64,000 nucleotides of DNA from a virus. Taxonomy: Duplodnaviria; Heunggongvirae; Uroviricota; Caudoviricetes. A program made the translations under genes and the position numbers. This document shows positions 1,251 to 16,571 of the stretch, in pieces. Within the stretch, counting starts at the first letter, position 1. Each line of letters begins with the position of its first letter. Location: the IMG/VR virus record IMGVR_UViG_2541047680_000004; one strand, 5' to 3'. The notes under the pieces were generated by a model. The model had not been told where the DNA came from and made no database searches. It saw only the letters and a program-made list of their open reading frames with translations.

Positions 1251-2024
1251 TTATTGATTCATAGATCGTTTACTCAGAATGTTCACTATATGAGTACAAG
1301 CACCTGGGGTGAGATTGATTTTATTAGTCCCCCACTCTTCACGTCTTCGCATCTGGCCTCCGTCAGACTTACCGATATCCCACGGAATAAAACCACTTAC
1401 GCCACAGGCATCCTCACCCAATTCCTCTATAAAATTTTCGTTCTTCGTATCGTAAATTTCGACCAGTCCATGTTTGCGCATACTCACAGCCCAAAGAGTT
1501 GCGCCTTTTATCGTCTGTAACGTATCGCAAACCAAGTACTGATACTTATCTACGAGATAAAGGTAAGCAAAACTTGCGATGCCTAATCCCATATAATCAG
1601 CATGAGTAAAAACCCCTCTAATCTGCTTGGCGCTGACTTTTACTCCAGATTTATCCTTGATTGGAAACTCGCAGTAGGCCACGCGGAAGACTGTTTGGAC
1701 TGGCTGCCCCACATGCAACTTGTAGGATTCAATTTCTGCTCCTATCTCAAGAGGTGTGTAACCAGCACGTTTGAGTCGCTTAACTTCCTGCTCTTGGTAA
1801 TCAGGATCACATGACTCAAGACACTCGCCAACAATACAGCGTTCATAGGCCGAATCAACAAGCTCGTATTCGGTAAATCGAATTAGATCGAAACCTCGGG
1901 AGATAAAATAGAACTCACCGAGAGCGATAATTCTCGTCGCTCTCGGCATTTCAGACAAGACCTTGCTGTAGTCTTCTATTTCAGGGATTAATCTGTTCGC
2001 CTGACCAATTAGAGATGGTGCCAT
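1251..2024 (-). CDS. hypothetical protein, possible acetyltransferase-like C-terminal half
   Basis: 257-aa ORF; segment YMGLGIASFAYLYL loosely resembles a GNAT glycine-rich motif; weak. Confidence 0.35.
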   Translation of the reverse strand: MAPSLIGQANRLIPEIEDYSKVLSEMPRATRIIALGEFYFISRGFDLIRFTEYELVDSAYERCIVGECLESCDPDYQEQEVKRLKRAGYTPLEIGAEIESYKLHVGQPVQTVFRVAYCEFPIKDKSGVKVSAKQIRGVFTHADYMGLGIASFAYLYLVDKYQYLVCDTLQTIKGATLWAVSMRKHGLVEIYDTKNENFIEELGEDACGVSGFIPWDIGKSDGGQMRRREEWGTNKINLTPGACTHIVNILSKRSMNQ

Positions 2025-2428
2025 GAAGTATTCTGTGCCGTTGATGGTTCCATATCATCGATTTTACAGAATTTCTTCATAAAAGACTCTACAACTTGTT
2101 TGATTCGTGAAGAAATATCACGATCTAAACACTTCAAGTCAGGATATTGTTCAGCAACATCTAAAACAAAAGAGGTTCGTTTACCGTTAGCGACAACCTC
2201 GGCCAACGGTTTAACCAGTGACGTAGAATTAGAGACCTTTTCGGCACGCGCCACATCGCTCTTAAAAGTGACGATGAAGTGCTGGCGGTTAGCTGATTCA
2301 CGGCACAACATACGTCGCACTTCTACTGCGTCTTCACTGTTGTGAATACGCATAGGAAAGCTGTCGATAACCGCAGTATTGGTGCGGATCGTCTGCATAG
2401 AACGCGTATTGTCATGATAATTTAGCAT
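2009..2428 (-). CDS. hypothetical protein
   Basis: 139-aa ORF overlapping the downstream gene by 16 nt; no motif recognised. Confidence 0.35.
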   Translation of the reverse strand: MLNYHDNTRSMQTIRTNTAVIDSFPMRIHNSEDAVEVRRMLCRESANRQHFIVTFKSDVARAEKVSNSTSLVKPLAEVVANGKRTSFVLDVAEQYPDLKCLDRDISSRIKQVVESFMKKFCKIDDMEPSTAQNTSWHHL

Positions 2429-2637
2429 ATATCCACCTTAGCCGTTAACACAAGTGTCATTGCGGCACCCCTCTCGGGGTTGAAGGCTACGAGAATGCGT
2501 AGCCTGTATGTGCCCACTTACGTGGATGCCTAATAAATCTACATCAAATTACTAAATGATTCAACATGAGCTTGAGTGAACAGGCGTGTATATGAGTGAA
2601 GATGCCATCTTTAGGATAAAAGGTAAACTGAGATCAA

Positions 2638-2874
2638 TCATCGACTCAGTTCAGGTGCCCCCCACTCACACAGCCTTTCACCTATCGTATTGTGGATAAG
2701 CAACTGTCGCTCCGTTTCCTCAGTCATAAAATCCTCTCTACTCACATAGATAGGATTTGCAGCATCGCAGAATAGCACGCCTGGAGCCTGCGTCTTAATC
2801 ACGCACCCATTTATCAAACAGCTCGCGATGAACACCAGAGGCATCTTTTTGCCGCACTTCATTAACCGTTTCAT
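2638..2874 (-). CDS. putative o-spanin (Rz1-like lipoprotein), overlapped architecture
   Basis: alternate frame overlapping the 3' part of the Rz-like ORF; short signal-like segment ending IASC (lipobox-like); start codon uncertain. Confidence 0.3.
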   Translation of the reverse strand: MKRLMKCGKKMPLVFIASCLINGCVIKTQAPGVLFCDAANPIYVSREDFMTEETERQLLIHNTIGERLCEWGAPELSR

Positions 2875-3046
2875 TTTTGACATCCACTGTGCTTTGAAGT
2901 CGTTTTCTGTCTTCCTGTTTTGCCTTCTCTTCCATTGCTCGTCGCGCCGCATTCCCGCCCATCGTGTAAGCGCCGACCAGAACGAAAAGAACGGCAGCCA
3001 GCGTAATCAAAGCAACTTTTAGCTTTGTCATCAGGCTGCCTAGCAT
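2795..3046 (-). CDS. putative i-spanin (Rz-like)
   Basis: 83 aa; N-terminal TM helix LKVALITLAAVLFVLVGAY followed by charged coiled-coil-like region; last gene of lysis cassette. Confidence 0.5.
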   Translation of the reverse strand: MLGSLMTKLKVALITLAAVLFVLVGAYTMGGNAARRAMEEKAKQEDRKRLQSTVDVKNETVNEVRQKDASGVHRELFDKWVRD

Positions 3047-3047
3047 A

Positions 3048-3740
3048 TTAGACCATCCCTTTCTGGTGTTTTCTTACCTGCGACCAGGCAATGAATCCTG
3101 CCACAACAATAGTGGCAATACCGAAGATGATGCGTACTGTATCCCCGCTAGAGATATGACCTTGTGCTTTATCCATAGCAGCGGAAACCTGTGGCATAAC
3201 ATCGGCCAGCTGTGCCAGACCAATACCTGCTGTAACAGTTGCGCCTGCGGTTTCTTTAGTTACAGGAACAGCCTTCACGGTTTTCACCGGCTTAACGACG
3301 CCAGCTCGACGCAGACCTTCCTCAATAACTTCTGCCGCATACCAGGTGTTCAGCGTTTTTAGCGGACCTCGCCCATTCTCATGGCGAATGATTGCCTCAA
3401 CCAAAGGTCGAAGGATGTCGTAATCATGCAGATCGATGATCATGTCTGCGGTTACACCAACGGCTTTAGACACCTCATTAATGTAGGCGTCAGTGTTGTT
3501 TTCATTCGGCGGTGCCCAACGTTCAATAACTTCACGAATGGTATCGATACTTGAGCCGTCTTTTGCGCGACGTTTGTCGTGGTAGGTAATTAGAGTCACC
3601 GCCAGCGCACGAATCCCCCAAACAGGGTCTTTAAACGTGCAAAAGCGCGGTTCGTCTGGATTCGCAACCAGACCTTGCCACGGTGATCCTTTATCAAGAT
3701 TACCGGGGTTATTATTACGAATGCCTCTCGGAGTCTTCAT
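3048..3740 (-). CDS. putative endolysin (peptidoglycan hydrolase) with C-terminal hydrophobic segment
   Basis: start placed at MKTPRG with RBS AGGAGA; motif IRNNNPGNL near N-terminus; C-terminal TM-like IIFGIATIVVAGFIAW; position between holin-like gene and spanins. Confidence 0.5.
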   Translation of the reverse strand: MKTPRGIRNNNPGNLDKGSPWQGLVANPDEPRFCTFKDPVWGIRALAVTLITYHDKRRAKDGSSIDTIREVIERWAPPNENNTDAYINEVSKAVGVTADMIIDLHDYDILRPLVEAIIRHENGRGPLKTLNTWYAAEVIEEGLRRAGVVKPVKTVKAVPVTKETAGATVTAGIGLAQLADVMPQVSAAMDKAQGHISSGDTVRIIFGIATIVVAGFIAWSQVRKHQKGMV

Positions 3741-3753
3741 CCTTGATCTCCTG

Positions 3754-4089
3754 TTATTGCAGTCCATTTTTTACGCCATACGCGGCTAACCCCAAAAGCA
3801 GTGCAGTAATAATGAACGACGTTATTTTAGAAACAATGCCGCCAAAGAACCCACTGGAGATGGAATCTAACCGGTTAAGGAGTTTGTCCAGATTGGAGTG
3901 TTGAATACTATGTTGCGCCGGGGTCATATCACCAAAGTAGGTTTTCAGCTGATCATTGACCTCTTGGCCAATTTCTTCACGTAGCTCTTTACCTAATTTA
4001 CCAACAACCTCCCGAGCAACGATCGCGGCAATACGCTCAACTTGCTCTGTTGTAACGCCCGCCATCTCGTTCGACATATTTTCCTCCAT
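3754..4089 (-). CDS. holin-like small membrane protein
   Basis: 111 aa with C-terminal TM segment ITSFIITALLLGLAAYGV; first gene of lysis cassette. Confidence 0.35.
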   Translation of the reverse strand: MEENMSNEMAGVTTEQVERIAAIVAREVVGKLGKELREEIGQEVNDQLKTYFGDMTPAQHSIQHSNLDKLLNRLDSISSGFFGGIVSKITSFIITALLLGLAAYGVKNGLQ

Positions 4090-4140
4090 GAAAAGTCAAA
4101 TCGGGATGGCGGATTTATATCACATTTCACCCTTTTGTTG

Positions 4141-4160
4141 TAGGTGTGTGCTTACCTATC
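4141..4160. promoter_or_regulatory. family-2 dyad-like motif (TAGGT..CTTACCTATC)
   Basis: shares the TTACCTATC word with sites at 30062, 56083 and 62343; intergenic between lipoprotein and holin genes. Confidence 0.3.
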
Positions 4161-4389
4161 ATTCAGCATTGCAACGGACTGATGAGAAAGCACCTACTCC
4201 AACCCATCGCCAGTTATAGATGCTACCCGCTTTGTATAAGGTATAGTCGTTCACTTTTTTAACAGCATATATGGGTATGACTGTCTCCTGTCCACCAATG
4301 ATAGCCTCACCATAACATATAGGTGTCGGCAATTTCTGGCAGCCAGTAAGAGAGAGAACAACAGCTATTGTTAGAAATAATCTTTTCAT
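4159..4389 (-). CDS. small lipoprotein
   Basis: 76 aa; signal peptide MKRLFLTIAVVLSLTGC with lipobox LTGC. Confidence 0.5.
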   Translation of the reverse strand: MKRLFLTIAVVLSLTGCQKLPTPICYGEAIIGGQETVIPIYAVKKVNDYTLYKAGSIYNWRWVGVGAFSSVRCNAE

Positions 4390-4399
4390 CGTTTACTCA

Positions 4400-5008
4400 T
4401 CAGTTATACAGATTTCTATTTATTACCGGTACTCTGCCATTTACACTAAAACTATGGCCGCCATTAAGTTGGTTTACGAATATAGAGCTAACAGTATTTC
4501 CATATGCCGCATATCCATAAACCATTGTCATGGCCCCGCCCGGTACTGGAACCGCGAACACATTTGCATATGTTGGGATTATCGCTGGCGGGTAATCAAA
4601 AACATGCCCTCCAGAACTGTTCCACTCCGTATTATTAAGAAAGGTAAATGAAAGTGGGATATTTGCCGTATTATAGATCTCCTCTCCTCGCGCATTGAAA
4701 AAACTCATGCCCCAAGTTTCTTTTTTGGCTATACCTTTCGAAAATACGTATATCGTGGCACTAGAGTCGCTACCCTGACCTCCGAAACTGTAAATCACCT
4801 GGTTGTTACGCACTATTCTGTTGGCTATTAATGAAACAGCTTTCGAATAGGCAACAAAAATCATCGGTGAACGATCTGGAGATATTTGGGTGTTAAACTC
4901 TGTCCCGCCGGACAAAGAAACAACCTGCTTTCTCTGAAAAACGATAGGAGACAAAGAAGGAGACATCCAGACCTTCCCGTCAGATCGATATATCTTGCTT
5001 CCGTACAT
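4400..5008 (-). CDS. hypothetical tail-fiber-associated protein
   Basis: 202 aa, Gly/Ser/Asn-rich; start overlaps upstream stop in TAATG arrangement (translational coupling). Confidence 0.35.
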   Translation of the reverse strand: MYGSKIYRSDGKVWMSPSLSPIVFQRKQVVSLSGGTEFNTQISPDRSPMIFVAYSKAVSLIANRIVRNNQVIYSFGGQGSDSSATIYVFSKGIAKKETWGMSFFNARGEEIYNTANIPLSFTFLNNTEWNSSGGHVFDYPPAIIPTYANVFAVPVPGGAMTMVYGYAAYGNTVSSIFVNQLNGGHSFSVNGRVPVINRNLYN

Positions 5009-5262
5009 TATTTTTGAAAAACCAATATGTTTAAATTACCACTAGCTCCAGACCACGAAATGGTATTTCCAGAAACCGTAAGACTTGTGTATTTTCCATT
5101 GGTTACGTCCATTATGTAATAGTCGATTCCCAATCCCGCCTCAACCTCATATGTTCTACTTCCTGAACCAGAGGGAGTAAAATAATCGAGGTAATAAACA
5201 GGGGCCAACGCATCGACCATCTCCTGTCTTGATGGCGACCAAACCTGTGCACCATAGCTCAT
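5008..5262 (-). CDS. hypothetical protein
   Basis: 84-aa ORF directly downstream of the tail fiber gene. Confidence 0.3.
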   Translation of the reverse strand: MSYGAQVWSPSRQEMVDALAPVYYLDYFTPSGSGSRTYEVEAGLGIDYYIMDVTNGKYTSLTVSGNTISWSGASGNLNILVFQK

Positions 5263-5322
5263 AAATATATCCTTATACTTTTAAGCAGGGGCTGGTTTAG
5301 TTCCAGCCCCGATTGAAGTTGT

Positions 5323-8300
5323 TTATTCTTTAGGTGAATTTAACTTCGTTTCAAGCTCCTCAACCCTTTTGGTCAATTGCTGAATATGATGAATGAGTGG
5401 TACAACCAAACGCTCATACATCACTCCTTCAGCGACCATACCATTTGAGGAAATATCTCCTGGAGAATCATTATTTGTTGGTTCACGCCAATGGACATAT
5501 TGCGGGGCAATCTCACCAACCTCTTCAGCAATAAGGCCGTAATACCCCCAATCCTTTCGGTCACCTCGACAAATTGAACGATACCAAACAGGTCTTAATG
5601 ACAAAAGTTCATCAGCATATCGATCTTGTAATGTTTCAATATCCTTTTTATAGCGCCTTGAAGATGTTGAACGCCAAACTGTATTGATACCTGGGTTTGG
5701 ATCAATGTACATATTGGCACCGCTAGTAGTTGTGCCAATATCCCATATAGCAAACCCTCCACTACCGCCTGATTTGACAACCAGTGTTTCAGCAATAATA
5801 TCCAGGTTGCCACTATAGCCTGTCAGTGATGATCTGCTTGCATAGGAACTTAGAAGGTTTGTTACCTCTGTTTTCGTATAAGCATTAAGGTTAGCCGCAG
5901 TCAAAGTAATATCGGCAGAGCCATCAAACGCCACACCAGCAATTTTCCTTGCTGTCTGCAATTTTGTGGCTGTTGCGGCATTACCAGTAGTATTCTGATT
6001 ACCGGTTGTATTCACACCAGGGATTGAATCCTTAGCGGTATATACCTGCGCCCACGCTGACCATGCCGCATCAGTGGTATCTCTTCTGGAGCGAATGAAA
6101 ACCGGCGCATGTGCACCGCTCGTACCACTCCAGCCAATAAGCAACTCGCCCTCACCAGCAGCACTCGCACCTTTCATGTGCAATACGTTGCCATACGTGG
6201 TCGGGTAGCTATTGTTGTACGCCTCGTACATTTGAATGCCAGCAGTACCTTGAGTAGAACCGCTTAAAGCCGTAACTCGACCACGAGAAACCAATGTATT
6301 AATATTGATATCACCTGAACCATCAAACTTAACACCATTGATGTTTCTCGCTGTTTGCAACTTCGTAGCTGTTGAAGCATTGCCATTCAAGCTACCATTT
6401 ACGCCACCAGTAACATTTAGTCCATTACCAATAGACACAACACCGCTGCTATTATTAATTATAATCGGTCGCAAACTGTTCCATGAACCTAACGTATCTC
6501 CTGATGCTGTTAGCATGAAATATGTGCTGCCGCCGTCATTACGGATAAAGAACCCGTAGTTACCGTAAGCAATGCGGAAACCATTTGCATATTTTGAAAC
6601 GATCTCACCAGAAGACGTCAACCCTCCAGATAATGTGCCACCTGAAAGCGGTAATGCTCCTACATCAGAAGCTGTTGGTTTGTTTCTAGTGTTATAAGAA
6701 CGACGCCAGCCTGGCGCATAATCACTCCCATTGTACACATAAATAAATTCCGCATTATTAACACCACCATGACCTGATGTTGTTGCCGTTGTAACACGAA
6801 TAGTGTAGTGGCTTGTTGCCTTATTACTAAACACCTCAATCACGGAACCAGATAGATCGATCCTACCGCAACCAGTGTCGTCTATATAATTATTGTTGGC
6901 GTAAGTCCATGAGCACCGTGCGATCCAATGTTTGTTTGTAAATGCCCCCTGATTGTTTAGCCAAGTTATAAATTGAGCAGTCGTAAATGCCGTTCCGTTA
7001 CCACTATTTAACCATCCAGCGGCAGCGGTTGGTGCGTTTATATCAGCCGGCTGAGGCATAAATCCAGTCGTGTAAACCTGCTCCCAACCACTTTCAAAAC
7101 CATAGCCATCTCTTGAGGAACGGTAGAACAGACCACCATTTTTATAGTGAGCTTTAATTTGAAGCGTACGGCAACTACCTACACCGGTATAAAAGTTGGC
7201 AAGAATATAACTGGCGCCTGTTCTAGTTACATTGTAAGCACCAGATTCAGCATTCCACGGCACGCCACCATCAGCATCCGCATATGACCCTGTTGCCCTT
7301 CTTGCGAAAGCGGCAACATGCGCAGCGGTTAAAGTGATATCAGTAGAACCATCAAATGGAACACCGGATATTTTTCTTGCAGTCTGAAGTTTTGTAGCAG
7401 TTGCAGCATTACCAGTGGTGTTCTGATTACCCGTAGTGTTTACACCTGGAAGGTTGATATTTGCAGAACCGTCGAAACCAACTCCACCGATAGATCTTGC
7501 CGTCTGCAATTTCGTTGCTGTACTTGCATTACCATTTAATGTTCCGGTGATCCCACCAGTAACAGACAACGGACCTGAAACTGTTCCTCCGGTTGTTGGC
7601 AGTGCTCCAATATCTAACGGCGTCGGTTTCTGATGTGTGCTATACATCGTATAAACAACACCATCGGTAACGCTGGAAGGCTTACTCGCTGAATATGTTG
7701 GCGATGTATAAACAGAAACTGACGCATTTGCAGTACAATCCCAATGGATATTTACACTCGTCGCATAATTGCCAATTTCAACGTAAATATCATATGTATC
7801 GCCGGATGTGTTGATCCAGGCGAAATTCGTTAATCCGACAGCTGTACGCTTCCACAAAGCACCTGTAATCCCTTTGGGGTTTCCATTGCCTGCTCGTAGA
7901 ACCAGTTCTGAAATGCCTGCCTGATGTGGGGAGCCGACGTTGTAACCAGCGCCACCAATCAATGCGATGTAAACGATGGAACTCGCTTGTGGCATTGTAA
8001 CAGTAGCCAGTTTGAACCACCCGGCCCCGCCAGAGAAAGACATCGTTATTGAATTTAAAGTACCAATATCTTTCGGCGTTAATGTGATATCCGCAGTCAG
8101 TGCTTTCCCGTTAATTTTTCGGTTAGATGGCACCCTGCTGTTCGCATTGTCATTGACTACTTTAACTGCTTTTGGCGTTGCGGCCAGCGATTCACTGGTG
8201 CTGTCGACAGCACTGCTAAGTTTCACAACACCTTTAGTTGTAAGGCTTGCGTCTTCCATCGCAACTGCACCGGCAATCTCTTCAGCACGATCAGCAGCAG

Positions 8301-9621
8301 CTTCCGCACGGGTCGCAGCGGATTCAGCAGCAGTTTTGCTCTGAGATGCTGCCGTCGCACTGCCTGCCGCCTCTGTTGCTTTCGTGGATGCCGTCGTGGC
8401 GCTGCCCTTCGCTGCTGACGCCTGTCTGGTCGCCTCATCTTTTGAAGCAGACGCAGATGATGCCGATGACGCTGCCGAACTGGCGGACGATGCGGCTGCC
8501 GTTTTTGAGGATTCTGCACGGGTTTCCGACGCTTTCGCGTTCGTTTCGGATGTCTTCGCTGCGGAAGCAGACCTCGCTGCTGCGCTGGCCTGTTCAGTGG
8601 CTTCGCCAGCCTTCGTTGTGGCTGTTGAAGCAGATGATGCGGCACTTTCTGCCGATTTTCCGGCGGCGGTGGCACTGGCTGAGGCCTGCCCGGCACTTGT
8701 TGACGCGGCACTGGCAGACGACGCAGCCGCTGTTTTTGAGCCTGCCGCAGCCGAGGCGCTCTGTCCCGCTGCCGTTTCAGAAGACCTGGCGTTCGTCTCG
8801 GACGTTTTTGCCGCCTTCGCGGAATTTCCTGCCGCCGTTGCCGAGGAAGCGGCATTACTGGCGCTCGAGGCTGCGCTCGTTTCTGATGATTTCGCTGCCT
8901 CTTTTGAGGCCGCCGCATCCCGGGCTGAGGTGGCAGCTTCTGACGCCTTCGTGGTCGCGGTGGATGCAGAAGTGGCTGCAGATTTTTGTGACGCTGCAGC
9001 ATTCGTTTCAGACGTTTTCGCGGCACCGGCACTGGTGGCCGCCGCGCTTTTTGAGGACTCTGCAGCGGATGCACTTTGAGACGCTTGAGAGGCTTTTTCT
9101 CCAGCGGTATTGGCGCTTTCTGCTGCTGCGGCAGCACTGGCCGCCGCCTCACGAGCTTTGTCGCCAGCAGCATCAATCGCGTCAGTGTTATTTTTATACC
9201 ACTCAACGTTTTCGTTGTGCTCGTTGACGATCTGCATTAGCGGCTTAACGGTCACTTCTGTACCGTCTTCACGCTCGATTGTCACCTCATCCAGAGCAGT
9301 CAACCAACTGCGCATGGACTTGGAATCAGCCGACATACGCGACATTAGTGCTGTAAAGCGCGCGCTAAACTGTGTTAAGTCGCCTTCATAGGTCGTAATG
9401 ATTCGGCACGGAACTTCAGACTGAGTTTCGCCGGTATAGGGTTCTGAGAGAACAATGTTCGTATCACTGGTTACGCGCTTGATCTCATACAGCTTATTGT
9501 CGGGGCCAATGACGATCATCCCCGGCAACACACCATTAGCTGTTACGTTCCAGGCTGTCCCTGCCCCAACCAGAGTATTGCTGCCCTGTGTAAATGTGAT
9601 AGTACCTTCCCTGTACCACAT
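5323..9621 (-). CDS. side tail fiber with C-terminal intramolecular-chaperone (S74-type) domain
   Basis: 1432 aa; tail-fiber motifs GVVKLSSAVDSTSESLAATPKAVK and repeated NGNASTATKLQTAR blocks; C-terminal chaperone-like segment (KKDIETLQDRYADELL...YGLIAEEV); long Ala/Ser-rich tract. Confidence 0.85.
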   Translation of the reverse strand: MWYREGTITFTQGSNTLVGAGTAWNVTANGVLPGMIVIGPDNKLYEIKRVTSDTNIVLSEPYTGETQSEVPCRIITTYEGDLTQFSARFTALMSRMSADSKSMRSWLTALDEVTIEREDGTEVTVKPLMQIVNEHNENVEWYKNNTDAIDAAGDKAREAAASAAAAAESANTAGEKASQASQSASAAESSKSAAATSAGAAKTSETNAAASQKSAATSASTATTKASEAATSARDAAASKEAAKSSETSAASSASNAASSATAAGNSAKAAKTSETNARSSETAAGQSASAAAGSKTAAASSASAASTSAGQASASATAAGKSAESAASSASTATTKAGEATEQASAAARSASAAKTSETNAKASETRAESSKTAAASSASSAASSASSASASKDEATRQASAAKGSATTASTKATEAAGSATAASQSKTAAESAATRAEAAADRAEEIAGAVAMEDASLTTKGVVKLSSAVDSTSESLAATPKAVKVVNDNANSRVPSNRKINGKALTADITLTPKDIGTLNSITMSFSGGAGWFKLATVTMPQASSIVYIALIGGAGYNVGSPHQAGISELVLRAGNGNPKGITGALWKRTAVGLTNFAWINTSGDTYDIYVEIGNYATSVNIHWDCTANASVSVYTSPTYSASKPSSVTDGVVYTMYSTHQKPTPLDIGALPTTGGTVSGPLSVTGGITGTLNGNASTATKLQTARSIGGVGFDGSANINLPGVNTTGNQNTTGNAATATKLQTARKISGVPFDGSTDITLTAAHVAAFARRATGSYADADGGVPWNAESGAYNVTRTGASYILANFYTGVGSCRTLQIKAHYKNGGLFYRSSRDGYGFESGWEQVYTTGFMPQPADINAPTAAAGWLNSGNGTAFTTAQFITWLNNQGAFTNKHWIARCSWTYANNNYIDDTGCGRIDLSGSVIEVFSNKATSHYTIRVTTATTSGHGGVNNAEFIYVYNGSDYAPGWRRSYNTRNKPTASDVGALPLSGGTLSGGLTSSGEIVSKYANGFRIAYGNYGFFIRNDGGSTYFMLTASGDTLGSWNSLRPIIINNSSGVVSIGNGLNVTGGVNGSLNGNASTATKLQTARNINGVKFDGSGDININTLVSRGRVTALSGSTQGTAGIQMYEAYNNSYPTTYGNVLHMKGASAAGEGELLIGWSGTSGAHAPVFIRSRRDTTDAAWSAWAQVYTAKDSIPGVNTTGNQNTTGNAATATKLQTARKIAGVAFDGSADITLTAANLNAYTKTEVTNLLSSYASRSSLTGYSGNLDIIAETLVVKSGGSGGFAIWDIGTTTSGANMYIDPNPGINTVWRSTSSRRYKKDIETLQDRYADELLSLRPVWYRSICRGDRKDWGYYGLIAEEVGEIAPQYVHWREPTNNDSPGDISSNGMVAEGVMYERLVVPLIHHIQQLTKRVEELETKLNSPKE
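8290..9175 (-). repeat. low-complexity Ala/Ser/Thr-rich coding repeats inside tail fiber gene
   Basis: recurring KTSETNA / SASAA units in translation; GC-rich repetitive codons create long spurious ORFs in other frames. Confidence 0.7.
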
Positions 9622-9712: not shown

Positions 9713-12700
9713 TTACAGAAGGCCAATTCTTACTCGTAGGACGTTGTTATCGTCATAAACGTCAATCCGCTGACCATTTATGACCAGTCGCCCATTACCC
9801 CCGCTATTACCGTTGATCTCAAGCGTTCCATTTTTGCCGAACCGCCATCCAGATCTACCGCTAACAAAATTGGTAGATTGCAGATCGCCTACTTTTGCAT
9901 TGGTGATTGTGCCATCCTTGATATACGCACCATTCATATAGGCGATACTGTTTTCGATAACAAATGGCGTGGTGATCTTCCCGTTAACAGAGTTGACCAA
10001 ACCAAACCTGTCAGCCTGCACCAAAAACTGAGAAAGGCCAGTGGTGTCGATACCAAGCGCAATACCAGCAACATACTTCTGCCCTCCGCTCGTTGAAGTT
10101 TCCATTTTCAACGTCCACGCGGTTGACACTTTTTTGTTGGTATCAGCAATAGCTGTTGCCTGCTGTTGAATTGTCGCGGTATTTCCATCCACCTCTGCTT
10201 TCAGAGTATCGATTCGCCCACTCAGAGCATTATCTGCCTGCGTTCTCGCTGTCGTTTCAGTTGTTACCGCCGCGGAAATGTTGGCTGCCGTTTGAGACTC
10301 TAAGTTTGTGATTTGAGTCGCCAATGCAGCATCTTGCTCTGTACGCGTTTTCGTTTCGGTTGCTACAGCCGCTTTAATATCCTCTTTGTATTGAGAGGTC
10401 AGCTTGGTGATCTGAGACGACAACGCCGAGTCAGCATCAGTTCGAGCCTGCGTTTCAACTGCAACGGCCGCACTAATATCTTTCGCTGTCTGTGCTTTTA
10501 AACTTGAAACCTCTTTTGTTAAAGCGGTATCACCATCAGCACGAGCCGTTGTTTCTCTGGCAAGAGATGCCTCGAGATCATTAGCTTTTGCTGTAAGAGA
10601 CGAAATCTGAGTGGACAATGCACTATCGGCATCAGTCCTTGCCTTTGTCTCTACAGCAACCGCTGCGGCAATATCAGTTCCGGTTTGTGCTCGCAGGCTG
10701 TTAATTTCTCGTGAGAGCGCCTGGTCAGCACTTGCTCTGGCCTCCTGCTCCTGAGTGATGGCAGCGGATATATCACCGTCAACCTTTGACTGAAGCTGGT
10801 TTATTAGTTTGGCTAACGCAGAGTCCCCGCTTGCTCGGGCCTCCTGCTCACTACGTATTGCAGCAGAAATATCATCATCAACCTTTGCCTGAAGTTGGGT
10901 GATCTGGCTTGCCAGAGCCGAATCTTCCGTTGCTCGGGCTTCTTGCTCTTCCTTAATAGCTGCGACGATATCGTTGCTTACTTTCGACTCAAGCTGAGTG
11001 ATCTGTGTCGTCAGAGCTTCATCGGCAGATGTGCGAGCCTCCTGCTCTGTACTAATCGCCGCGCTGATATCTCCTTCAAACTTAGATTGCAGCTGAGTGA
11101 CACGCTTTGCCAACGCTTCATCGCCATCGGCACGAGCGGTGGACTCTTCCAGAATACTGGCCTTAATGTCTTCGCCAATTTCTACGCGAATTTCCTCAAC
11201 CTTCGTGGCCATTGCAGACATATCATCAGCAAAGGTTTTCTGTGTTGTTGCGATCTTCGCGTTATTGACCATCTGCTTGTGCTGGTCTTCATCTTGACGA
11301 AGAGCCAGGTCAATATTTGTTTTGGCTAACGCCTCAATGTTCGTAGTCAGTTCTGCACTGGCACGATCGACCTCTGCAACCGTCTTTTTCATTTCTTCAA
11401 CGGCAGCGGAGCTTTCCTCTACCGTTGACTGCAACACTTCCAGTTGTTTAGCGTTTGCAGCATCGCCTTCAACACGAGCCTCGCTTTCCTTAGCAATAAG
11501 AGCCGCCGCTTCATCTCTTGCAGCCTTTATTGCCTCGACTGTATTAGCGAGAGCTTTATCGTGTTCAGATACGGTGTTTTCGATTTCAACAATTGCAGCA
11601 TCAGTGGCATCAATTTTTTCAAACGCTTCATTGACCTTGTCGATCGTTGCCGAAACCTCACCTTTAAGCTCGGTTTGTGCGTTCTCCAAAGCATCGCTAC
11701 GCTCGTTGAATTTTATTTCAAAACCCGCGAGGTTATCGCTGAACTGCTTATCTAATTCAGCTATATCTTCCTTAACGTCGTTTACCGACCCCTCCAAAGA
11801 TTCGACGCTCTGGTTGATATGCTCATTTAACTCGTCAACTGCTTCTTGAGAGGCTTTGCTGTTGATGTCCTCAAGCAGAGCCTGACCAAGCTCGGAAGAT
11901 GTAATTTTGCCAGCCAGGAACGACAGTACATCGCGAGTTGTCGCCTCTGTACCCAAGTTTGAGTTCGGAGGGCTTAACATACCTCGCTTGTTCGATGCTC
12001 GAACCCAGTAATACCACGTTTCGCTATCCCCAAGACCAGCATGTGTAAAGGTGGTGCTTGCAGACTCTGCGATCAGTTTCGCCGTATCCAGATTGTTGGT
12101 CTGGGATGCGTAAACATTAATGTGATCAAGGTCTACCGAATCTGGATTAACCCAATTCAGTATCACATTACGATAGTCTCCAACGGCCGTTAATGACGTT
12201 GGGGCATCCGGCGGTGTCATTGTGCCCAACACCTGATAAACGGTACTGATAATCTCTGTTTTTTTACCGTTGAATGAAACCGCATACAGTTGGAAGTCGT
12301 AGCGTCCATTCTCCGCGACATTAACGATTTCGTATTGCTCTTCGGTTACACGCGCCGATTGCCAGTTCGATACATTGTTTTCATCAGAACGTCGCCAACT
12401 GATCCAATACTCTGGAGATTTTCCTTCCCATGTTGCAGTCAGTTTTACTGACAGGTTGCCCGGGCTTGAGAGATAAGTCCCTTCAGTGATTTGCAGATTA
12501 GATGGCTTGGAGTAAGTTGGGTCCAATACCGTCGTATTCTGCGGGATCAGCGTTGCACCATTGTCGATTGCCTCATATTTAGACGGATTGTTCTCAACAG
12601 CGGTGATGTCAAAGCTACCCGGCGTTTCCCCCTGCGCGATGTTAACGATGCGAACGCGCATAGGTTCGAGATCTGGTTCTGTAATTGTCCAGACACCGTT

Positions 12701-14443
12701 CAAAACAGGCGTTTCCGCTGACGACAGGGCTTTTGAAAACGTAACCTTTGTTATGTTTTCGCCAGTTTCAAGAACATCGCGTTCAACGATTTTGCCTTCC
12801 TGATTCAATATCCGAATAAAGCTGCCGCTTTTAGCTAACGACACAGGCGCATCGAGAGTGATGCTGTTTTTGGTAAACTCCACAATTCGACCGGAGTTAC
12901 GTTTACCTGCACGATATTTGTTCTGAATCAGAACGGTTTCACCGGGCATCAGAAATGAGGCGTCTAAGCCGGCAGTAAATGTAATTACATCCGACTCCAT
13001 TCTGGCGGTATACAAAAGCCACAAACCAACTCGGTGAGCCTGGCCTCGGCTTGTACATCCAAATGCTACGACTTCTGTTTTACGCTCACCATAACGGCGC
13101 ATTGCGTCCTGATCTTCAACGTACTCGATGTTTTGCTTATAACCGTCCTCCTTGTTGTTGTAGGTTACGAGCGCAACGGATGGGCGATCTTTACGCGCAG
13201 AACCTTTATAGGTAAACAGTCCATCTTTGACGTTGGAGTTGGTAAACATCATTACCGGATCTGATGGGCTATCCTGCATGATGTTAACCATGCCACCAGC
13301 CCAAAACACCATGCCGCGGAATGCACCGGCAATATCCTGAATTAATCGGTATGCGTCTTGTCGACTGGTGATCTGCGTATTGATTGCAAAGCGTTTCTCT
13401 TTACCCCCAAAGCCATCATCGACCTCTTCGTCACAATATCGACCAATCTGGTAGAGCTGGCCGAGGTCAATCATGGATTCCGACACAAATTGCCCAAGAC
13501 CATACCGAGTATTGGTAAGCAAATCGTAGAGAATCCACGCAGGGTTTGAAGAAGACAACAGCTTAAAAGTACCGTCCCATACGCCGACATAAGTATTGGT
13601 GTATTCGTTGTAGTTTGACGGTACTCGGATTTTGATACCGCGCACCAAATACGAACGGGAAGGCATTGTGCTACCAAACTGCTCTGAATTGACCTTCAAG
13701 CCAACAAGAGCAGAGTTAGGGTAGTTCATTGGCGTGTCGACAATCTCACCGATGGAATCAACCCATGTGTCGTTGTAGAGGTACTGGCTACTATTATCAT
13801 CTGTAAGACGAATCACCCTAACCTTGTATGCACGACCAGGCTTAGGCAGTTTCAGCTCATAGCTACGGTAATACACGCCGGTTTTCTTTGCCGTTAGCGT
13901 GATATCAACGCTTTTCTCACCTTCTGCCACTACATCAGAAAATGTTGCGTCTGCGTTGGCGATCTGGAATTTGTACTTCACCGTAGTGCCATTTGTATCG
14001 CCAGAGCTTTTATCAACGCTACGTAAAGAGGGGAATTTCATGATGACACGAACGCGATCAGCTTCATCGTTATCGATTGAAACCGTAACGTCGTGTGTTT
14101 TTTTAAGCTGAATATTTACGGACTTAGGCGTTTCGACAAAATCAAAACCAGCCATTGGCGTCTGATCTTGTGAGCCGTCACGAAAATCCCATGTAATACC
14201 GCTGAAGTTGGAAGAGCCATCTTCATTCAAGATCGGTAAATCGTCGATGAAGATCGACTTTGCGCCATTTACCAGGCCACCGATAACCCCCTCGCCAAGA
14301 AGGTCGAGGATGGCTGCCATAGCACGAGAATTGACAGTATCATCAGCTTCAACCGGGGTACGGCTGGAGCTTTTACTTTTCTTGCCACCAGCACCGGCAA
14401 TAAGAAGCGGTAATTTTTTCTTCTTGAACTGTTCCATGTCCAA
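9713..14443 (-). CDS. tail tip / host specificity protein (lambda J-like) with expanded coiled-coil repeat stalk
   Basis: 1576 aa; blocks matching lambda J (FGCTSRGQAHR, YCDEEVDDGFGG, SALVGLKVNSEQFGS, YVAGI..LSQFLV); about 380 aa of roughly 29-aa tandem repeats before the C-terminal domain. Confidence 0.9.
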   Translation of the reverse strand: MDMEQFKKKKLPLLIAGAGGKKSKSSSRTPVEADDTVNSRAMAAILDLLGEGVIGGLVNGAKSIFIDDLPILNEDGSSNFSGITWDFRDGSQDQTPMAGFDFVETPKSVNIQLKKTHDVTVSIDNDEADRVRVIMKFPSLRSVDKSSGDTNGTTVKYKFQIANADATFSDVVAEGEKSVDITLTAKKTGVYYRSYELKLPKPGRAYKVRVIRLTDDNSSQYLYNDTWVDSIGEIVDTPMNYPNSALVGLKVNSEQFGSTMPSRSYLVRGIKIRVPSNYNEYTNTYVGVWDGTFKLLSSSNPAWILYDLLTNTRYGLGQFVSESMIDLGQLYQIGRYCDEEVDDGFGGKEKRFAINTQITSRQDAYRLIQDIAGAFRGMVFWAGGMVNIMQDSPSDPVMMFTNSNVKDGLFTYKGSARKDRPSVALVTYNNKEDGYKQNIEYVEDQDAMRRYGERKTEVVAFGCTSRGQAHRVGLWLLYTARMESDVITFTAGLDASFLMPGETVLIQNKYRAGKRNSGRIVEFTKNSITLDAPVSLAKSGSFIRILNQEGKIVERDVLETGENITKVTFSKALSSAETPVLNGVWTITEPDLEPMRVRIVNIAQGETPGSFDITAVENNPSKYEAIDNGATLIPQNTTVLDPTYSKPSNLQITEGTYLSSPGNLSVKLTATWEGKSPEYWISWRRSDENNVSNWQSARVTEEQYEIVNVAENGRYDFQLYAVSFNGKKTEIISTVYQVLGTMTPPDAPTSLTAVGDYRNVILNWVNPDSVDLDHINVYASQTNNLDTAKLIAESASTTFTHAGLGDSETWYYWVRASNKRGMLSPPNSNLGTEATTRDVLSFLAGKITSSELGQALLEDINSKASQEAVDELNEHINQSVESLEGSVNDVKEDIAELDKQFSDNLAGFEIKFNERSDALENAQTELKGEVSATIDKVNEAFEKIDATDAAIVEIENTVSEHDKALANTVEAIKAARDEAAALIAKESEARVEGDAANAKQLEVLQSTVEESSAAVEEMKKTVAEVDRASAELTTNIEALAKTNIDLALRQDEDQHKQMVNNAKIATTQKTFADDMSAMATKVEEIRVEIGEDIKASILEESTARADGDEALAKRVTQLQSKFEGDISAAISTEQEARTSADEALTTQITQLESKVSNDIVAAIKEEQEARATEDSALASQITQLQAKVDDDISAAIRSEQEARASGDSALAKLINQLQSKVDGDISAAITQEQEARASADQALSREINSLRAQTGTDIAAAVAVETKARTDADSALSTQISSLTAKANDLEASLARETTARADGDTALTKEVSSLKAQTAKDISAAVAVETQARTDADSALSSQITKLTSQYKEDIKAAVATETKTRTEQDAALATQITNLESQTAANISAAVTTETTARTQADNALSGRIDTLKAEVDGNTATIQQQATAIADTNKKVSTAWTLKMETSTSGGQKYVAGIALGIDTTGLSQFLVQADRFGLVNSVNGKITTPFVIENSIAYMNGAYIKDGTITNAKVGDLQSTNFVSGRSGWRFGKNGTLEINGNSGGNGRLVINGQRIDVYDDNNVLRVRIGLL
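10250..11330 (-). repeat. tandem coding repeats (about 87 bp units) inside J-like gene
   Basis: repeated ISAAI..EQEARA..DSALA..QITQLQSKV units in translation. Confidence 0.65.
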
Positions 14444-14454
14444 AAAATCCTTGA

Positions 14455-15045
14455 TTACATAAGCTGGTCGATGGTGATAGAAGAACTCACGACCTGTGAG
14501 CCAACTAAAATTTCCTCGCCATAGATAAGCTGTACAGGGTTCCCCTGGTTTGTTGTGTTTTGAGGTCCATCAAAGTAATAAGAGTTCGAGTTATCCGCCT
14601 GCCTCACACTTTCGTTAGTGGCTTGCGGAGATATGATTTGCGCTATACCGCCCATCATCAGTGACAAACCGAGAGGCGCAAGAGCGGGCACCCATATCGA
14701 GGCAACCATTAATACTGCTCCAACAACCGTCTGAAACCATCCAAAAGCAGATCCACCACTTCCTCGCGGAACAGGGGTAATGCGGATTTTTGCAATATTG
14801 TCAGACTGCCCCATCATCTGATATTCACTCTCGTCCACAGACCACTTGTGGCCCTGTTTATTGGTGATCTGGATGTGGTATCTGTCATAGGTTTTGATAT
14901 TGCGCTTCATCCATGCTTTAAACCCAGGCTTGTTGGCCTCAATTAAATCCAGAGCCTGTTTTGTATTACGCACCTTTAGATGCCAGTGGCGGCCAAAATG
15001 TTTGGCCATAGGGCCGCCAAGCTGCACATGAACTAACTCAGACAC
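14455..15045 (-). CDS. tail assembly protein (lambda I-like)
   Basis: 196 aa; position between K-like and J-like genes; hydrophobic central segment. Confidence 0.75.
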   Translation of the reverse strand: MSELVHVQLGGPMAKHFGRHWHLKVRNTKQALDLIEANKPGFKAWMKRNIKTYDRYHIQITNKQGHKWSVDESEYQMMGQSDNIAKIRITPVPRGSGGSAFGWFQTVVGAVLMVASIWVPALAPLGLSLMMGGIAQIISPQATNESVRQADNSNSYYFDGPQNTTNQGNPVQLIYGEEILVGSQVVSSSITIDQLM

Positions 15046-15857
15046 GTCTCATCTCCCTTGAGCAAGTCTCTGTGACGCAAGTGATGCGTCGTATGTTTCT
15101 GATACATCCCGCCGTAATAAGCACGACAACTAAGGCGGTCGATCTGGTGATGAAGAATCATTCCATCGCCGATATAAACCGCACAGTGGTCAGGCATTTT
15201 TCCGTATTGGATAAAGAAGACGTCCCCACGTTGAGGTTCTGTTCCGGGCGCAAGCCGTACCAATCCTTCGTTTCGGTAGTTCTGATCGAGAATGTCGTTA
15301 TCGCCGGTGTACCACGATGGAATATGCAGGTGTGCGTTCGGGTTTAGTTCGACGTTAAACTCACGCTTCAAATAGTCCCGACACAACATCCAGCAATCAA
15401 ATACGCCAAATACATACGGTCTGCCCAGGTATGGCATTTCGAAACCATCAGGTGTGATCACATTCATCTCGCTAAAATGGAAAGGGGCATCTCCCTCAAC
15501 ATTCTTGCGAATAGCCAGAATCATCCACGGAACTTCCGTCGCTTCGCAGCCTGCACGATCGGCATAAGATGCTTCTGCTGATTCATCAGTATGTGAATGC
15601 CAGATTGCGATAACATCACCCGCATCCTCTGCCGCCATAATGTCGTCAACGTGCATTACAAAAGTGTTCTGCGGGTTCTCCGAAACATTCCGCGCTTCCA
15701 TAAAGCGATATTTGTCGCCATTAGTTCTAACCAGAAAGCCACACGCTTCATTAGGGTAGCGATTTATGGCGCAGAGATAGATTTGCTGCATAACGTCAGA
15801 GCCAAGCTCAGGGATTGCTTTATTACCCATACCGCGTAGCTCCAATAAATCCGCCAA
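15033..15857 (-). CDS. tail tip assembly protein (lambda K-like; MPN/JAMM plus NlpC/P60-like)
   Basis: HSH..D metal motif (AIWHSHTDES) and Cys..His pattern (FDCWMLC ... H); position between L-like and I-like. Confidence 0.8.
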   Translation of the reverse strand: MADLLELRGMGNKAIPELGSDVMQQIYLCAINRYPNEACGFLVRTNGDKYRFMEARNVSENPQNTFVMHVDDIMAAEDAGDVIAIWHSHTDESAEASYADRAGCEATEVPWMILAIRKNVEGDAPFHFSEMNVITPDGFEMPYLGRPYVFGVFDCWMLCRDYLKREFNVELNPNAHLHIPSWYTGDNDILDQNYRNEGLVRLAPGTEPQRGDVFFIQYGKMPDHCAVYIGDGMILHHQIDRLSCRAYYGGMYQKHTTHHLRHRDLLKGDETCLS

Positions 15858-16521
15858 AATGGATCACACCGTCGGCAAAATAATTCCGACGCGCATTACA
15901 GGCGTCATAACGTTTTGTGCAGTAATCCGCACCAGACATAGACGTCTGCTGGTTATTTTTGTCGAAATATGGACCGGTATAGCCGCATTCTGGCCCTCGG
16001 TATTTCCACGGGCAGGTGTTTTTAATGATCTGACGATACGGCAGTTGCACCCCCATCAAATCGAACACACTGGACAATTCAAACTCGACAACCTGATGAG
16101 TTTCGAGAGTTTTCTGTTCGATAAACCACATTTCATCCGGGAAATGTTGGTTTGGATCTGCTGTTGGGTTGCCGTCTTTAAAATTAACGGCATCGAGGAA
16201 GCGAGCCAGCGTCATCTTGCGAATAATGCGGCAGCCAACAAGATCGTCGTTCGCCTGAACTTCCGCAGAGACGGTTCCGGCAAAGTTCGATACCTGAATT
16301 TTTGGACGTGGCAACGTTCCCTGGCCAGTTTTGTCAAAGCCTGATGCTTTGATTGGCCACGGCTCGTATGTCACTCCTTGCCAGACGACCGGTTGCATCA
16401 GTTCGTTTGTTCCGGCGTGGAAGAATAGCTTCCCCCCTGAAGTTGTGTTCGACATATCCAGTACGAACAACTCAATGAGTGCAGAGGGAGATAAGCTCTG
16501 AATATCAGCTTTAATTCCCAT
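15823..16521 (-). CDS. minor tail protein (lambda L-like)
   Basis: cysteine motif CPWKYRGPECGY comparable to lambda L; start set at MGIKAD with RBS AAGGA. Confidence 0.8.
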   Translation of the reverse strand: MGIKADIQSLSPSALIELFVLDMSNTTSGGKLFFHAGTNELMQPVVWQGVTYEPWPIKASGFDKTGQGTLPRPKIQVSNFAGTVSAEVQANDDLVGCRIIRKMTLARFLDAVNFKDGNPTADPNQHFPDEMWFIEQKTLETHQVVEFELSSVFDLMGVQLPYRQIIKNTCPWKYRGPECGYTGPYFDKNNQQTSMSGADYCTKRYDACNARRNYFADGVIHFGGFIGATRYG

Positions 16522-16571
16522 TGTTTCATCCTTGAAATAAGTAGGCGCTAACATCCTGTCAGCGCCACAAT

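Follow-up and report, generated by a model that had tools for sequence, protein, structure and literature searches.

The J-like central tail fibre of an SSU5-type phage-plasmid carries a predicted helical shaft with ten tandem 33-residue repeats

Introduction

In the tail-tip protein J of phage lambda, a short alpha-helical shaft lies between the second fibronectin type III domain (FNIII-2) and a beta-prism termed the 'central straight fibre'; an Ig-like receptor-binding domain comes next, and the short shaft partly converts to beta sheet when LamB is bound (PMC11101478). The C-terminal part of the phage T1 protein gp33 is too flexible to be resolved and is predicted to form a protrusion of ~37 nm (PMC11945409). 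T1-like phages (Drexlerviridae) encode separate receptor-binding proteins downstream of J together with cognate exclusion genes. In F-type pyocins, the homologous region is a three-stranded alpha-helical shaft that bears the side fibres (PMC13455828; bioRxiv 10.64898/2026.01.28.702463). The coil of the F7 pyocin, 163 residues in length, becomes a beta-prism on cell contact and opens the tip; the part that switches is marked by the motif SxSxxMxxLxS, read in either orientation, with Asp/Glu at the M position paired with Arg at i+/-4, and similar switches have been predicted for 21 of 24 siphophage fibres (bioRxiv 10.64898/2026.01.28.702463). Here, we analyse the J-like gene in a stretch of 64,000 nucleotides from a Caudoviricetes virus (IMG/VR record IMGVR_UViG_2541047680_000004), to which we refer as the window and whose numbering is used for all coordinates.

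The gene product is the central tail fibre, or J-like tip, of a siphophage of the SSU5 type, which persists as a plasmid. On balance, we consider it rather probable that this is a trimeric fibre with an enlarged, repeat-built shaft that serves as a metastable spring and refolds on receptor engagement. The identity of the protein, its anatomy, the period, the variation in copy number and the homologies are direct results, and the trimeric coil, its length and the fold switch are inferred. The host range of SSU5-like phage-plasmids depends on the tail tip, and these elements commonly carry resistance genes in Enterobacteriaceae.

Identity of the gene and its product

The window is 100% identical to pECOH89 from E. 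coli H89, an SSU5-like phage-plasmid that carries CTX-M-15. The J gene, likewise 100% identical to that of pECOH89, has 95% identity with the gene of Escherichia phage Cyrano, which is also an SSU5-like phage-plasmid. In complete E. coli genomes, 240 of 240 matching places are located on plasmids. The gene, the N-terminal part of its product and the genes directly upstream are:

9713..14437, minus strand: J-like central tail fibre / tail-tip gene (open reading frame, Pfam, alignments, RefSeq)
11939..14443, minus strand: hub and FNIII domains, residues 1-835, collinear with lambda J 3-837 and conserved across SSU5-like elements
14455..16554, minus strand: genes for L (15823..16554), a K-like protein with JAB and NlpC/P60 domains (15033..15857) and an I-like protein (14455..15045), directly upstream of J

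From the RefSeq ATG at 14437 the gene encodes 1574 residues. The tool used for open reading frames (ORFs) placed the start at a TTG at 14443, two codons before the ATG, giving an ORF of 1576 residues at 9713..14443 on the minus strand, and residues are numbered according to this longer version throughout. With 1574-1576 residues as compared to 1132 residues for lambda J (PDB 8iyk), the protein indeed has the excess of about 440 residues that had been noticed in an earlier reading of the window made from its letters alone (the original prediction). ORFs on the opposite strand within the J gene (10895..11849, plus strand) were taken as spurious.

Pfam domains FNIII-A_GpJ (residues 103-237), Phage-tail_3 (residues 359-522), fn3 (residues 746-825) and Phage_Tail_Tip (PF09327, residues 1424-1558) were found, all four of them with scores above the cut-offs, and the protein matches phrog_31, 'central tail fibre J'. 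The first ~860 residues align with lambda J, T1 gp33, the F2 pyocin fibre and another J-like tip protein, with E values of 1e-115 to 1e-156 for the alignments with lambda J, T1 gp33 and the F2 fibre. The gene order is tape measure - M - L - K - I - J, the tape measure and M-like genes being taken from the annotation of pECOH89. Domains, alignments and upstream L, K and I genes all bear out the original assignment as a J-like tip protein. Strict equivalence with lambda TipJ does not apply, as the score with the NCBIfam model NF049904 is 530 bits and the cut-off 1950.

The 33-residue repeat

When the protein was compared with itself, one sharp period stood out, at 33 residues, and its harmonics appeared at 66 and 99. 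Within residues 1092-1420, the identity at offset 33 is 0.486, compared with a maximum of 0.194 in 5000 shuffles over all offsets from 5 to 119. This region is a tandem array of ten units and comprises 329 residues, since the unit profile delimits nine units of 33 residues and a seventh unit of 32 residues. The repeated features are:

10184..11170, minus strand: array of ten tandem units of 33 residues (99 nt), residues 1092-1420 (unit profile, self-comparison)
11417..11503, minus strand: lone degenerate copy of the 33-residue unit, residues 981-1009 (unit profile)
10731..10948, minus strand: sole tandem repeat detected at the DNA level by Tandem Repeats Finder, period 99 nt, 2.2 copies, 77% matches, in units 3-5

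The original prediction had proposed about 13 copies of a 29-residue unit spanning about 380 residues. A regular tandem repeat is present far beyond chance expectation; its dimensions are different, namely 33 residues in ten copies with one orphan. A period of 29 residues was rejected because the identity at offset 29 (0.073, residues 1092-1420) equals background. An 11-residue sub-repeat was likewise rejected, offsets 11 and 22 being at background, and so was a recent duplication of a block of five units, as unit pairs i/i+5 are no more alike than other pairs.

The consensus of the unit is DISAAIxxETxARAxADxALxxQITxLxSKxxx, with invariant residues A4, E9, R13, D17, A19, L20 and L27. Identity between units amounts to 28-70% for the protein and to 39-65% for the DNA, and the longest exact word common to any two units has 12 nt. 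Because of this low identity in DNA, Tandem Repeats Finder recovers the 99-nt period and reports it for only 2.2 copies. By these values, the units are old. Pfam holds no model for the 33-residue unit itself. The hydrophobic period within the array is 3.65, i.e. 11/3, which is hendecad-like (33 = 3 x 11) and compatible with a hendecad coil.

The helical shaft and the C-terminal domain

Lambda J aligns with the window protein in two blocks, residues 3-837 with residues 22-862 and residues 839-971 with residues 1419-1548. In lambda these blocks abut at 837/839, compared with 557 residues that lie between them here, and the window protein thus has an insertion of 557 residues. The array makes up ~60% of it, the remainder being non-repetitive predicted helix. 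Hence, the original notion that the excess over lambda J consists largely of repeats holds for a helical region of which the repeats form the major part, not the whole. The parts of the protein concerned are:

11171..11938, minus strand: proximal non-repetitive, predicted alpha-helical shaft, residues 836-1091 (hydrophobic period 3.55, heptad-like; AlphaFold2)
9770..10174, minus strand: beta-structured central straight fibre, PF09327, residues 1424-1558 (Pfam; aligns to lambda J 839-971; fold match)
9716..9769, minus strand: last 18 residues, a C-terminal end common to T1 gp33 and PDB chain 9ze4_N

AlphaFold2 predicted residues 836-1099 as helix in a single-sequence run, with a predicted local distance difference test (pLDDT) score of about 75-85 in the helix. 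With an alignment of 114 sequences (mean pLDDT 77), helix was predicted for residues 1041-1407 and beta strands from residue 1413 onwards, such that the extra length is predicted to be a helical repeat region, in line with the original suggestion. The predicted helix ends at residue 1407 inside unit 10, and the strands from residue 1413 run on into PF09327. In Foldseek, the predicted beta part matches the lambda central fibre with an E value of 5e-7. The array is the distal 60% of the predicted alpha-helical shaft, which would extend over ~570 residues (residues ~836-1407).

The shaft is probably a three-stranded coiled coil. As a straight three-stranded coil the array would have a length of about 49 nm and the whole shaft of about 85 nm. 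Electron microscopy of Cyrano (PMC9928086) yielded a tail length of 259 nm, where the tape measure would predict about 230 nm, and neither showed nor excluded a long distal fibre.

The predicted helix is broken at VEGDA (residues 990-994, ~11462..11476) and at AQTGTD (residues 1252-1257, ~10673..10690). These breaks are candidate kinks or docking sites for side fibres. The break AQTGTD sits exactly between units 5 and 6 and parts two unit subtypes, 'EQEAR' and 'ETxAR'.

According to the original prediction, the repeats precede a conserved C-terminal receptor-binding region. What follows the array is the beta-prism domain PF09327, and an Ig-like receptor-binding domain of the lambda type (lambda ~972-1132) was not found: the alignment ends at lambda residue 971, equivalent to residue 1548, after which 28 residues remain. 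The protein ends 18-28 residues after the part covered by PF09327 or aligned with lambda, where T1 gp33 and 9ze4_N end as well, and its C-terminus resembles that of a pyocin-type fibre chain. As a receptor-binding domain is absent after PF09327, this element of the original prediction was wrong.

Unit number and mosaicism among relatives

A homologue search with the C-terminal 495 residues returned mostly truncated entries of at most 867 residues, which were unusable for counting copies; a profile search and fetched loci were used instead. The following numbers were obtained:

pECOH89, Cyrano and CMS-2020a: 10 units
PhiR41_1: 9 units
Yersinia pestis pMT1 and a Citrobacter plasmid: 6 units
SSU5 and an Enterobacter plasmid: 5 units

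The length of the array therefore varies among relatives, as had been anticipated. Since the first and the last units are orthologous across the SSU5-like relatives, it is interior units that were gained or lost. Among near-identical E. coli plasmids, exactly 99 nt have been deleted in frame on two independent occasions. One deletion is present in NZ_CP027358.1 and occurred at a 10-nt microhomology between units 3 and 4; the other lies between units 4 and 5 in NZ_CP081792.1 and two sibling plasmids. Both one-unit deletions thus map to units 3-5, where Tandem Repeats Finder sees its repeat. About 160 of the 164 plasmids that carry this shaft have retained ten units. The description of the array as recombination-prone in the original prediction receives weak support from the two deletions and is opposed by the shortness of the shared words and by the constancy of the unit number in these plasmids.

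The deletions bear on the question whether unit number has an adaptive meaning at all. In a scenario of neutral drift, occasional slippage or unequal recombination would be tolerated within wide limits. The exact loss of single units in near-identical plasmids with an otherwise unchanged gene fits such a scenario, as does the range within the wider family, from few to 22-25 units with spacings of 32, 33, 36 and 39 residues; insertion sequences in the J gene of several plasmids also point to relaxed selection on the tail in some lineages. However, ten units persist in nearly all plasmids with this shaft despite 1-5% sequence divergence, and the conservation of seven invariant positions in old units of 28-70% identity argues for purifying selection on each unit. 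We therefore regard drift as a rather unlikely explanation.

The insertion sequences in question, IS100, ISEc23 and IS1, interrupt J in the phage-plasmids NZ_CP035843.1, NZ_CP124394.1 and NZ_CP020118.1, which are otherwise similar; this suggests that these lineages are no longer infective.

At the DNA level, similarity to PhiR41_1 and to Klebsiella relatives ends at gene nt ~2610-2654, which is the boundary between hub and shaft. Because similarity stops at this point, the shaft together with the tip behaves as an exchangeable module. On the window, the mosaic boundary is located near 11939..~11790 (residues ~835-885), where the shaft begins.

Several homologues deserve separate description. 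The J homologue of Klebsiella phage vB_KpnS_p4727 (321-12455 of the fetched locus) has 4044 residues with a conserved hub and a conserved C-terminal straight-fibre domain. Its shaft is replaced by about 2800 residues in which repeated modules of ~200 residues alternate with coiled-coil linkers, and it carries an additional C-terminal extension of ~150 residues. The homologue on Y. pestis pMT1 (2022-6617 of the fetched locus) appears intact, has six units and extends ~130 residues past the region aligned with the window protein; it is followed by a gene for a DUF4376 protein and by a tail fibre gene. The J homologue from C. freundii lies at 2025-6656 of the fetched locus.

A possible fold switch of the shaft

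In the array, the SxSxxMxxLxS pattern of the F7 pyocin is matched 27 times in three fixed places of the unit, namely positions 4, 12 and 19 (shuffles gave a mean of 5.8 and a maximum of 16), and 21 Asp/Glu-Arg pairs at i+/-4 are present (shuffle mean 5.3, maximum 13). In the AlphaFold2 model beta strands follow the coil directly, with the last unit running straight into them. Given the homology to F-type pyocin fibres, the motif, the acid-Arg pairs and the adjoining beta strands, we favour a metastable coiled-coil shaft. By homology with F-type pyocin fibres and judged from the motif, the coil probably refolds into a beta-prism. Each unit would provide three hendecads with a conserved buried Glu-Arg pair, and the number of interior units would set the length of the fibre. 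The coil would act as a metastable spring, and engagement of the cell surface would make it refold into a beta-prism, for which the adjacent beta domain would act as the seed. Refolding would shorten the fibre, pull the FNIII closure apart and open the tail tip.

Several points weigh against this reading. The regular expression used for the motif is our own rendering of the published pattern, and the matches are not independent, the ten units being homologous. The F7 pyocin chains (PDB 9YG8-9YGD) were absent from the sequence matches, and the motif positions were applied by pattern and not by alignment. The extensive switch has been shown for the F7 pyocin only, and lambda and T5 do not have the same one (bioRxiv 10.64898/2026.01.28.702463). 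The AlphaFold2 runs were monomeric and yielded only helix and the C-terminal beta domain, so that they have no bearing on the trimeric state, the length or a beta-prism. Given the predicted helix breaks at ~990-994 and ~1252-1257, the shaft may not form one straight rod of 85 nm but bend at kinks or fold back. The length of the array is stable within a lineage and varies between lineages, the array being no hot spot, and unit copy number is linked to no phenotype.

Some of the same evidence would suit a passive, rigid coiled-coil spacer without any refolding, the copy number of which tunes reach through O-antigen or capsule, as the original prediction had proposed in similar form. Unit number follows host group, with 5 in Salmonella and Enterobacter, 6 in Yersinia and Citrobacter and 9-10 in Escherichia; the array region is predicted to be helical, and lambda and T5 function without a large coil-to-prism switch. 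On the other hand, every unit keeps two features that have been reported for fibres with a fold switch, namely the pattern of small, Leu and charged residues and the buried Glu-Arg pairs; the last unit enters beta strands that could seed refolding, and even lambda's short shaft partly turns to beta sheet upon LamB binding. A purely passive spacer is possible, yet in our view not probable.

If the preferred reading of a refolding, metastable shaft is correct, the natural variants with 5, 6, 9 and 10 units constitute a ready series for relating coil length to tail opening. Going further, the 33-residue unit could be a quantised spring module with a fixed refolding energy and a fixed contraction length per unit, such that phages would gain or lose interior units (5 to 10 units in the SSU5-like elements, more than 20 elsewhere) to set the stroke of tip opening and the distance over which the tail is drawn to the membrane. 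We put this forward as speculation that is unlikely to hold. Were it true, an observation made in 2026 in a single system would be extended to a general parameter of siphophage infection that can be read from sequence and engineered.

Distribution of the unit

When 1.84 billion representative proteins were screened with a profile of the ten units, a threshold of E <= 1e-3 gave 2020 matching proteins and one of E <= 1e-10 gave 977. Upon re-scanning of the retrieved proteins, up to 22-25 units per protein were found, with spacings, in order of falling frequency, of 32, 36, 33 and 39 residues. Two of these proteins have about twice as many units as the window protein: P0121 (2138 residues) carries 21-22 units of 33 residues, 21 of which are contiguous, and P0127 (2040 residues) carries 19 units of 32 or 36 residues. 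Both share the domain order of the window protein, i.e. FNIII-A_GpJ, Phage-tail_3 and the repeat array with PF09327 directly after it. Ten units are thus mid-range and not extreme, and the repeat is an ordinary example of a widespread and already recognised phage fibre segment.

Downstream genes and receptor recognition

As J lacks a receptor-binding domain of its own, the receptor is probably recognised by the side fibre, by small proteins that dock to the tip of the fibre, or by both. The respective candidate genes are found downstream of J:

5323..9621, minus strand: Mu/P1 S-like side tail fibre of 1432 residues that contains a T4 gp34 trimerisation domain and has an intramolecular S74 chaperone at its C-terminus, downstream of J
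4159..5262, minus strand: phrog_557 'outer membrane protein' (84 residues), phrog_425 'membrane associated protein' (202 residues) and Cor superinfection-exclusion lipoprotein (76 residues), after the side-fibre gene

Residues ~150-450 of the side fibre form a low-complexity run rich in Ala, Ser and Thr, which causes long but spurious ORFs to appear on the opposite strand and in further reading frames (about 8223..9227). The gene table of the plasmid lists only 979 residues for this ORF.

The side fibre raises the possibility that the shaft is mainly a docking platform for these 1432-residue proteins, with extra units providing room or spacing. Side fibres of F-type pyocins bind to an acidic, Gly-containing kink of the shaft, the helix predicted here breaks at VEGDA and at AQTGTD, and a large side-fibre gene follows J immediately. 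Nevertheless, comparison of the side-fibre N-terminus with pyocin side fibres gave no match, the only similarity being a very weak one to a distal tail protein (E 0.13), and the side fibres of Ur-lambda and T5-like phages attach at the distal tail protein or the collar and not at the central fibre. Moreover, docking needs one site and not ten repeats. A role primarily in docking is hence improbable.

Homologues of the 202-residue phrog_425 protein with 29-32% identity occur in T1-like phages of ~50 kb. By analogy, the three small genes may represent a detachable receptor-binding and exclusion locus for J, possibly of the FhuA type. In T1-like phages the receptor-binding and exclusion genes are situated downstream of J, whereas the candidate locus of the window lies beyond the intervening large side-fibre gene. 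For annotation and for the prediction of host range, it is useful to know that J lacks its own receptor-binding domain, that the unit count of its modular shaft varies by host group and that hub and shaft meet at a mosaic boundary.

Comparison with known systems

Lambda gpJ (PDB 8iyk, 8xcj/8xck; the 1132 residues given above refer to 8iyk) and the window protein share the hub, the FNIII domains, the beta-prism central straight fibre and the gene order L-K-I-J. The shaft occupies the same position in both, being short in lambda and comprising ~570 residues here. While lambda J ends in the Ig-like domain that binds LamB (~972-1132), the window protein has none.

In T1 gp33 (PDB 9l9p), the same type of 33-residue repeat, e.g. 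DIQASLTDIREVIATETEALSREIDQLKAQIGD, is found before the same C-terminal domain, and the two proteins terminate at an equivalent residue. Shaft and C-terminal tip of the window protein align with residues 890-1014 and 986-1167 of gp33 (E 2e-29), which with its 1172 residues has fewer units than the window protein.

F-type pyocins (F2, PDB 25vf; F7) are similar to the window system in that they have a J-like hub, a long alpha-helical shaft and a beta-prism and lack a receptor-binding domain of the lambda type. Units 6-10 together with the C-terminal domain align to residues 926-1193 of the F2 fibre with an E value of 1.6e-25. The pyocins are tailocins, whereas the window belongs to a DNA-containing temperate phage-plasmid; a fold switch has been shown for the F7 pyocin and docking of side fibres for the F2 and F7 pyocins, whereas for the phage-plasmid the switch is proposed from homology and the two predicted helix breaks are candidate docking kinks. 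No tandem repeat is described for the pyocin coil of 163 residues, in contrast to the window shaft of about 570 residues with its ten regular 33-residue units.

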